From Haliotis rufescens (taxonomy: Eukaryota), in the NCBI RefSeq assembly GCF_023055435.1, contig NW_025964383.1, positions 6,882,001 to 6,946,000 of the forward strand: a stretch of DNA of 64,000 bases, read 5' to 3'. Position numbers and translations under genes: made by a program. The notes under the pieces are model-generated. The model was not told the DNA's origin. It did not search any database and saw only the letters and a list, made by a program, of their open reading frames with translations. Below, piece by piece: positions 1 through 54,893 of this stretch. Within the stretch, counting starts at the first letter, position 1. Each line of letters starts with the position of its first letter.

Positions 1-465
1 ACTGAGGACTGCGTTCCCTGGTGTAAGTGTGGACTGTGTTGCCTGACTTGTGTGACTGAGGAGTGCGTTCCCTGGTGTAAGTGTGGACTGTGTTGTCTGA
101 CTTGTGTGACTGAGGACTGCGTTCCCTGGTGTAAGTGTGGACTGTGTTGCCTGACTTGTGTGACTGAGGAGTGCGTTCCCTGGTGTAAGTGTGGACTGTG
201 TTGCTTGATGTGTGTGACTGAGGACTGCATTCCCTGGTGTGGGGGGGACTGTGTTGCCTGACCTGTGTGACTGAGGACTGCGTTCCTGGTGTAAGTGTGG
301 ACTGTGTTGCCTAACTTTTGTGACTGAGGACTGCGTTCCCTGGTGTAAGTATGGACTGTGTTGCATGACCTGTGTGACTGAGGACTCCTTCCCTGGTGTA
401 AGTGTGGACTGTGTTGCCTGACGTGTGTGACTGAGGACTGCGTTCCTGGTGTAAGTCTGGACTGT
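1..465. repeat. Minisatellite, 54-bp unit
   Basis: Tandem actgaggactgcgttccctggtgtaagtgtggactgtgttgcc...; runs off the window edge. Confidence 0.95.
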
Positions 466-487
466 GTTGTTCAACATGAGAGTGAGG

Positions 488-495
488 AAGGATAT
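488..495 (-). other. U12-type (minor spliceosome) AT-AC intron 5' splice site ATATCCTT
   Basis: Minus strand reads TTC CTT G|ATATCCTTCC, a match to the RTATCCTT consensus at the end of coding similarity. Confidence 0.85.
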
Positions 496-43630
<43,135 letters not shown>

Positions 43631-52433: not shown

Positions 52434-53875
52434 AGTACACCCCTGTCAGAGAGTGAAGCCTGTTTGGTTATCCAGGGTAGTGTGTCTACCAACTACACCC
52501 CTGTCAGGGAGAGATGCCTGTTTGGTTATCTAGGGTAGTGCATCTACCAAGTACACCCCTGTCAGGGAGGGATGCCTGTTTGGTTATCCAGGGTAGTGTG
52601 TCTACCAACTACACCCCTGTCAGGGAGTGATGCCTGTTTGGTTATCTAGGGTAGTGCATCTACCAAGTACACCCCTGTCAGGGAGGGATGCCTGTTTGGT
52701 TATCCAGGGTAGTGTGTCTACCAACTACACCCCTGTCAGGGAGTGATGCCTGTTTGGTTATCCAGGGCAGTGTGTCTACCAACTACACCCCTGTCAGGGA
52801 GGGATGCCTGTTTGGTTATCCAGGGTAATGTGTCTACCAACTACACCCCTGTCAGGGAGTGATGCCTGTTTGGTTATCCAGGGTAGTGTGTCTACCAACT
52901 ACACCCCTGTCAGGGAGTGATGCCTGTTTGGTTATCCAGGGCAGTGTGTCTACCAAGTACACCCCTGTCAGGGAGTGATGCTTGTTTGGTTATCCAGGGC
53001 AGTGTGTCTACCAAGTACACCCCTGTCAGGGAGGGATGCCTGTTTGGTTATCCAGGGTAGTTAATCTACCAACTACACCCCTGTCAGGGAGGGATGCCTG
53101 TTTGGTTATCCAGGGTAGTGTGTCTACCAACTACACCCCTGTCAGGGAGAGATGCCTGTTTGGTTATCTAGGGTAGTGCATCTACCAAGTACACCCCTGT
53201 CAGGGAGTGATGCCTGTTTGGTTATCCAGGGCAGTGTGTCTACCAAGTACACCCCTGTCAGGGAGTGATGCCTGTTTGGTTATCCAGGGTAGTGTGTCTA
53301 CCAAGTACAACCCTGTCAGGGAGTGATGCCTGTTTGGTTATCCAGGGTAGTGTGTCTACCAAGTACACCCCTGTCAGGGAGTGATGCCTGTTTGGTTATC
53401 TAGGGTAGTGCATCTACCAAGTACACCCCTGTCAGGGAGTGATGCCTGTTTGGTTATCCAGGGTAGTGTGTCTACCAAGTACACCCCTGTCAGGGAGGGA
53501 TGCCTGTTTGGTTATCCAGGGTAGTGTGTCTACCAAGTACACCCCTGTCAGGGAGTGATGCCTGTTTGGTTATCCAGGGTAGTGCATCTACCAAGTACAC
53601 CCCTGTCAGGGAGTGATGCCTGTTTGGTTATCCAGGGTAGTGTGTCTACCAACTACACCCCTGTCAGGGAGTGATGCCTGTTTGGTTATCCAGGGTAATG
53701 TGTCTACCAACTACACCCCTGTCAGGGAGTGATGCCTGTTTGGTTATCCAGGGTAGTGTGTCTACCAAGTACACCCCTGTCAGGGAGGGATGCCTGTTTG
53801 GTTATCCAGGGTAGTGTGTCTACCAAGTACAACCCTGTCAGAATAAGGATGCCTGTTTGGTTATCCAGGGTAATG
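52434..53875. repeat. Minisatellite, 58-bp unit
   Basis: ctgtcagggagtgatgcctgtttggttatccagggtagtgtgtctaccaactacaccc. Confidence 0.96.
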
Positions 53876-54893
53876 TTCGACTACTAAGGATAGTGTGTCT
53901 ACATCTCCATCAGCAAAGAAGAGGGTACCCATAGATCAGCATGCCAGTGTCAACTAAGGAAGATTGCCCTGCAACATTGGAAGGCAACTGGTATCTAAAG
54001 TCTTTGAGATCCCAGATGCCAACCCTGGGGAGTGTGACGCCGTCTCCACAGTGTGGTCGGACAGTGCAAACATCAACTTGTTATTGGTATGATAAGGTAA
54101 ATGGAGTCTTACAGCAGACTGGGGGTGAGGGATGGTGTAGTTCAATATAGAGTCTTACAGCAGACTGGGGATGAGAGATGGTGTGGTCCAATAGGGAGTC
54201 TTACAGCAGACTGGGGATGAGGGATGGTGTGGGTCAATCACACCTCCTCACACTGAGGTGTTCACTCCTATTGATTGTTTTGGCAGAGGGTGGGTGACAG
54301 AGAGGGATTAGACTTTACAGGCACACACACAATTCAAACACAGCCAAACATGAATACACTTTTATAATTCCAGGTATGTATCAATGCCAGGTTTCTGCCA
54401 TTAAGTTGACTTTCTGATACATTCTTAGTGTACCAAAACTCGACATGAATGTTGACTCGACAAGAGCTGAATCTTTGCACGGATGTGTGACTAAGTAATA
54501 TGCAGGCCAGATGGGTTTGTGTTAACTATGCCCTGCCAAGGACAGTATGCACTCCACACAAAACTTAATCTTTAACTTTTATTGCTGAATTCTCCTTGCA
54601 ACATACATAGTGCATTTACCAAGTGCATGTATAACAATCCTGCCTAATTGGTTGAACACATGAAGGGGTAAACTACATATCAAACAGCGGCCAGCGTGTC
54701 CTCATGTGCCAGCAAACAGTGAAGGAGCAGCGAGAATCAATAATTAGGGACTCAACTAATTCTTTCCCCAAAATGATGAATCATTGAAAAGAAAGCAAAC
54801 AAAAGGCTCGCCCCACACACAAGCAAGAGGAGCTTAAGCACCGAGTGCCAGAGAAATAAAGCAAGCAGTGATTCTGTGACCGGGACAGCCCAC

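Follow-up and report, generated by a model that had tools for sequence, protein, structure and literature searches.

An AT-starting intron, very probably of the U12 type, in the myosin VIIa gene of the abalone Haliotis rufescens, and its counterparts in other animals

How does a myosin VIIa exon end when no GT donor follows it, and which kind of intron starts there? This question is raised by a stretch of 64,000 nucleotides of the Haliotis rufescens genome (the window), whose minus strand carries a large part of a myosin VIIa gene (Table 1). Position 496, a G, is the final base of an exon, and ATATCCTTCC follows directly at 495..486; the positions 488-496 singled out by the initial annotation, which had read the site as the start of a phase-1 U12-type intron, are this exon-end G plus the donor octamer. 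There is indeed no GT donor at the 496/495 junction, the earliest GT inside the intron being located at 475. The consensus of U12-type donors is RTATCCTT, with which the catalogued MYO7A and MYO7B donors agree. From +2 to +8 the abalone donor matches TATCCTT at 7 out of 7 positions, and the 32 GT donors of the same gene reach at most 5 out of 7. The number of such motifs was rejected as evidence for a U12-type donor: RTATCCTT occurs four times in the window versus 4.02 times expected from shuffles, and the motif alone is thus at chance level. What is significant is its position: it coincides precisely with the exon end given by homology and by the spliced contigs, which places an extended RTATCCTT 5' splice site at an exon end that is used.

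Table 1. Features at the 5' splice site and in the surrounding myosin VIIa gene (window coordinates)
Feature	Position	Strand	Remarks
Probable U12-type 5' splice site ATATCCTTCC	486..495	-	Intron +1 at 495, phase 1; from sequence
Last myosin VIIa exon in the window, 161 nt	496..656	-	P0233 residues ~1695-1749; between SH3 and second FERM domains, start of second MyTH4 region
5' portion of the AT-starting intron, at least 495 nt	1..495	-	3' end left of the window
54-bp tandem array, 8.8 copies, 90% match	1..469	.	Starts 26 nt into the intron
Preceding GT-AG intron, 384 nt, phase 2	657..1040	-	Positive control for contig alignment
Myosin VIIa gene	496..37195	-	33 coding exon blocks, 32 complete introns; exon map versus P0233

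Searches for homologues of the gene gave gastropod proteins as best matches and, further, the Haliotis rufescens RefSeq model myosin-VIIa-like X1 (P0233). Mapped on the window, this protein divides into 33 exon blocks that start at codon 7 and run to residue 1748, where the match ends; most blocks are 90-100% identical (tblastn). Of the introns, the 32 complete ones are all GT-AG, and the 33rd begins with ATATCCTTCC. P0233 reads ACMSFL-AILKYMGDHPSK, the same junction as in the spliced contigs described below; the RefSeq model already splices this intron correctly in abalone. Junction residue 1749 of P0233 falls between the SH3 domain (1583-1639) and the second FERM domain (from 1878), and a Pfam search of this protein gave two MyTH4 stretches, with coordinates for the first only (1166-1262). 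The exon at 656..496 matches the human myosin VIIa chain 5MV9 (E 5.8e-10), the site aligning with residues 87/88; a protein search with the 53-amino-acid exon, which covered proteins up to 2000 amino acids, gave no match at E 0.001. The earlier placement within the second MyTH4 domain is therefore correct in the broad structural sense of the 5MV9 alignment, but the site probably precedes the Pfam core. Read in frame past the donor, the exon continues as D-I-L-P-H to a stop after 61 codons, inside the 54-bp tandem array.

Use of the donor is documented by spliced contigs. Fourteen sequencing runs were guessed to be RNA; they contain a fraction of 0.24-0.33 of the sequence words from positions 480-7400, close to the exon share. 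Contigs from X1, X4 and X7 (RNA-like runs from three studies) and from X15 (one of four DNA-like runs) were aligned to 420-2400; the RNA status of X1, X4 and X7 is a guess from their labels, backed by intron skipping, and no run is recorded as RNA. In each of these three runs there is one contig that lacks three GT-AG introns and matches the genome over 656..492 but no further; the predicted phase-1 AT donor is thus used in 3 out of 3 RNA-like runs, with all contigs leaving within 4 nt of the site. The joint 656-1041 across the control GT-AG intron is present in X1, X4 and X7 and absent from X15, whose contig is continuous over 420-962 with no variant listed at 486-496. Over 420-486 the depth in X1, X4 and X7 is zero, as measured on contigs, which rare retention or isoforms could escape. 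Past the donor, the unaligned contig letters translate in frame to LKYMGDHPSK, as in P0233. The next exon had been predicted to resume with (A)ILKYMGDYP; (A)ILKYMGD does resume, but both the contigs and P0233 continue with DHP instead of DYP.

The contig alignments run 4 nt past the donor, owing to the similarity between the next exon and the start of the intron. In frame, the donor (495-488, minus strand) reads D-I-L where the true protein has A-I-L, a likeness that accounts for the overshoot of the aligner and also for read-through gene models. Each RNA-like contig shows one mismatch in the exon block, whose letter is not listed. Since P0233 has Ala-Ile at 1749-1750, a single mismatch at 495 explains the contigs and makes 496/495 the latest possible junction, and a junction shifted leftward would make the intron start with GA. 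The first dinucleotide of the intron at this junction is AT, with the mismatch at 495 being deduced from Ala1749 of P0233 rather than read directly.

Further evidence comes from orthologous loci in metagenome contigs, which were scanned with a pattern that describes how the next exon begins and leaves the preceding sequence free. This yielded at least 117 loci, 37 of them with short flanks, of which 21 were dropped as not representing the second-MyTH4 exon (HMM score below 30). Among the 96 loci then listed, 51 are continuous, 42 have an interruption at this phase-1 base and three contain a GT-AG intron 2 nt downstream. The continuous loci (47 classified by script and four, L058, L087, L104 and L114, re-classed by eye from the script classes 'other' or 'AG phase 1') are a mixture of transcripts and genomic DNA and were not counted as losses. 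All 42 interrupted loci listed end in AC and none in AG; the upstream exon is visible in 24 of them, and all 24 introns start with ATATCCTT and are 99-1600 nt long. The Ala codon is restored in all 19 of the listed loci that were checked. At 90% identity the 42 loci listed form 21 clusters, 17 of them with a visible donor, and 19 of the 21 have a branch site with at most two mismatches from TTCCTTRAC 8-12 nt before the intron end; such a site was present in 7 of 101 upstream control windows and at 1 of the 32 acceptors in the abalone gene itself. Among the loci listed, the positional orthologues thus mostly carry a TTCCTTRAC-like branch site, and other animals have introns running from AT through this branch site to AC at exactly this base. 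In the bivalve-like loci L013 and L076 both the canonical branch site and AC are kept.

The initial reading as a phase-1 U12-type intron is thereby supported, and what is confirmed is largely known. With little doubt, ATATCCTTCC at 495-486 (minus strand) serves as the phase-1 5' splice site where the myosin VIIa mRNA departs from the genomic sequence; the intron that begins there is likely a U12-type AT-AC intron, removed by the minor spliceosome and orthologous to the catalogued minor intron of MYO7A and MYO7B. To judge from the orthologues, the abalone intron would end, left of the window, with a TCCTTRAC-like branch site and AC, and its removal by the minor spliceosome is likely. U11 and U12 would recognise donor and branch site, after which U6atac would replace U11, as in the established mechanism (PMC3584512); the split codon would be Ala, restoring FL-AILKYMGDHP. 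If the intron were not spliced, the stop after 61 codons would remove the second MyTH4-FERM module.

A missed donor truncates or corrupts this module in gene models. Among 228 long database models, the anchor is missing in 12 and the junction is intact in 153, where it has Ala in 134 cases and never Asp; another 43 read through the donor as [DNY]I[LF], and 20 are broken in other ways. The resulting proportion of 63 broken out of 216 anchored long models comes from a biased sample and is inflated because the homologue search, the source of 42 of the 43 read-throughs, was limited to proteins of less than 2000 amino acids. Several models (Lottia, Solemya, lamprey, birds) read L-D/N...P-[IV]LKY, as expected if the branch site and an intron ending in C were translated. 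Nine of ten read-through fragments that were looked up carry no protein name, and one is a 'hypothetical protein'. P0225, a mammal-like fragment, reads AFI-GIR at the junction, which would agree with a U12 donor of the GT subtype in some mammal.

Could the donor be of the U12 type and the intron nevertheless be removed in another way? An AT donor whose 3' end has drifted in abalone to AT-AG, or has lost its branch site, would start a hybrid or major-spliceosome intron. We consider this very improbable, even though the abalone 3' end lies outside the window, U2-spliced AT-AC introns exist (PMC6717393) and the branch site varies among the orthologues, being TTCCTGAGY-like in 16 of the 42 loci listed. 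The donor agrees with the U12 consensus at every position, no orthologous phase-1 intron among the 42 listed ends in AG, the two bivalve-like loci retain canonical branch site and AC, and PMC3584512 describes AT-AG as disfavoured.

The two remaining alternatives deny that the AT donor is real, and to each of them we assign next to no probability. ATATCCTT might be coding, with D-I-L echoing the conserved A-I-L, and the true donor might be a later GT, or the gene might end in the repeat. The chance-level frequency of the motif in the window and the 43 of 228 long models that read [DNY]I[LF] at this residue would agree with this; the main isoform contradicts it, as all three RNA-like runs leave within 4 nt and have zero depth over 420-486. 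The next GT lies as far inside as 475, read-through ends at a stop after 61 codons, and the 153 models with an intact junction have Ala in 134 cases and Asp in none. That AT is an assembly error or a private variant of a GT donor could draw on P0225, where a GT subtype elsewhere is conceivable, but is already contradicted by the independent X15 contig, without a variant at 486-496, and by the orthologous donors, 24 out of 24 of which are ATATCCTT among the loci listed.

The vertebrate MYO7A minor intron brought up in the initial annotation is real: for both human and mouse, MYO7A and MYO7B are entered among the genes with a minor intron in PMC6717393, and the donors given there agree with this codon. 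The human MYO7A intron spans 858 nt (chr11:77203218-77204075; PMC6717393), and PMC11347168 classes the human MYO7B intron as minor and marks it as responsive in one column (MDS) of nine. Like the abalone intron, the catalogued ones have an AT-type donor after a G; their 12-mers fit the Ile/Val codon before the site, ahead of A-V/I-L-K/R-Y-M-G-D in 5MV9 and 5MV7, and translate in frame to DIR, DIH or DIL, as do the mammal-like read-through fragments P0162 and P0184 at this residue. The 12-mer spanning the donor in the window is identical to the minor-donor 12-mer of mouse Myo7b. Codon and phase are thus the same as in the MYO7A/MYO7B minor intron, as far as the alignment and the catalogued 12-mers, rather than human genomic sequence, can tell. 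In contrast to the listed human MYO7A donor (ATATCCGT), the abalone donor is nearer to the consensus; the abalone gene also differs in being molluscan and in the 54-bp tandem array within the intron.

PMC3584512 covers the defining features of minor introns, the U11/U12/U6atac mechanism and conversion through a nearby cryptic U2 donor. Compared with U12-type AT-AC introns in general as described there, the abalone copy shows no categorical difference: it shares the conserved 5' site, the occurrence as a lone minor intron among many GT-AG introns and a phase other than 0, and its orthologues share the branch site near AC. AT-AC ends alone are no proof of U12 use (PMC6717393, PMC3584512). Minor introns are enriched in molluscs according to a survey that includes two Haliotis species (PMC10639083), and MYO7A was not found in its supplement. 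No myosin was found in the supplement of PMC2831892, the text of PMC3291851 or the supplements of PMC6865273. Among the papers listed in our literature search, none describes this intron in invertebrates; intron databases may well include it. An Rfam search of the window gave no match, which is uninformative about the minor spliceosome of the host. The intron is real but ordinary and very old, a mollusc member of a catalogued group; its relevance lies mainly in annotation and intron evolution, and it reveals no new splicing mechanism.

To estimate its age, a FastTree phylogeny with midpoint root was calculated from residues 1600-2000 of 32 reference proteins and 28 loci (29 were put in; L036, with 69 columns, was left out). 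Four AT-AC loci (L026, L030, L064 and L067) form a group with Nematostella (support 0.91) that lies outside a bilaterian clade (0.94), the cnidarian-like rows being short (76-140 columns). For L026, Capitella is the best named match by pairwise identity, and Nematostella is the best blastx match of its cluster. Further AT-AC loci in the tree group with annelids, bivalves, a mite and a fish. Since AT-AC loci occur in cnidarian-, annelid-, bivalve-, mite- and fish-like sequences, the intron is likely, if not proven, to pre-date Bilateria. It had been called an ancient bilaterian intron; ancient it is, but with AT-AC loci grouping with Nematostella it looks older than Bilateria. A well-anchored minor intron common to cnidarian-like and bilaterian sequences should be useful for tracing loss and U12-to-U2 conversion. 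Four loci (L003, L012, L051 and L104) form a deep-branching clade outside the bilaterian group and are continuous at the site; L104 appears to be genomic, and its identity could bracket the origin of the intron.

Only two loose threads are left, an annelid-like branch variant and the shifted GT-AG intron. Instead of TTCCTTRAC, a TTCCTGAGY-type branch site at the usual distance from AC is found in the following 16 of the 42 AT-AC loci listed: L010, L027, L028, L031, L033, L041, L046, L049, L052, L056, L061, L088, L098, L103, L107 and L117. Those placed in the tree (L027, L028 and L031) group with annelids, and among the literature matches listed there was no occurrence of the branch variant 'TCCTGAG'. 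The crustacean-like loci L091, L105 and L109 contain a phase-0 GT-AG intron of 67-70 nt that lies 2 nt downstream of the U12 site, and the related L007 is continuous at that site. Conversion from U12 to U2 by a cryptic donor is a possible origin of this intron, as is independent gain. We entertain, as a speculation that is rather less probable than its negation, a wider scenario in which the intron goes back to the common ancestor of cnidarians and bilaterians, its orthologues amounting to a natural experiment on the fates of a minor intron at one codon: kept, lost, turned into GT-AG via a cryptic donor 2 nt downstream (crustacean-like), or kept with a shifted TTCCTGAGY that may mark an altered pairing rule of U12 snRNA (annelid-like), while a donor mimicking the next exon (D-I-L for A-I-L) would corrupt myosin VII models across databases.

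Several other features of the window were seen in passing. Within the intron 20925-16444, the minus strand carries broken open reading frames at 17273-19258 that resemble a tyrosine-recombinase (DIRS-like) element; Pfam searches with them gave weak phage-integrase SAM-like matches only, below the cut-off (E 0.008). A high-copy dispersed repeat is located at 889-1027 and 1224-1558, in two adjoining introns, and draws thousands of contigs from RNA-like and DNA-like runs alike. Long minisatellite arrays are numerous across the window (e.g. 8765-11643, 29339-30829, 37727-39405 and 52434-53876), several of them within introns of the myosin VIIa gene.
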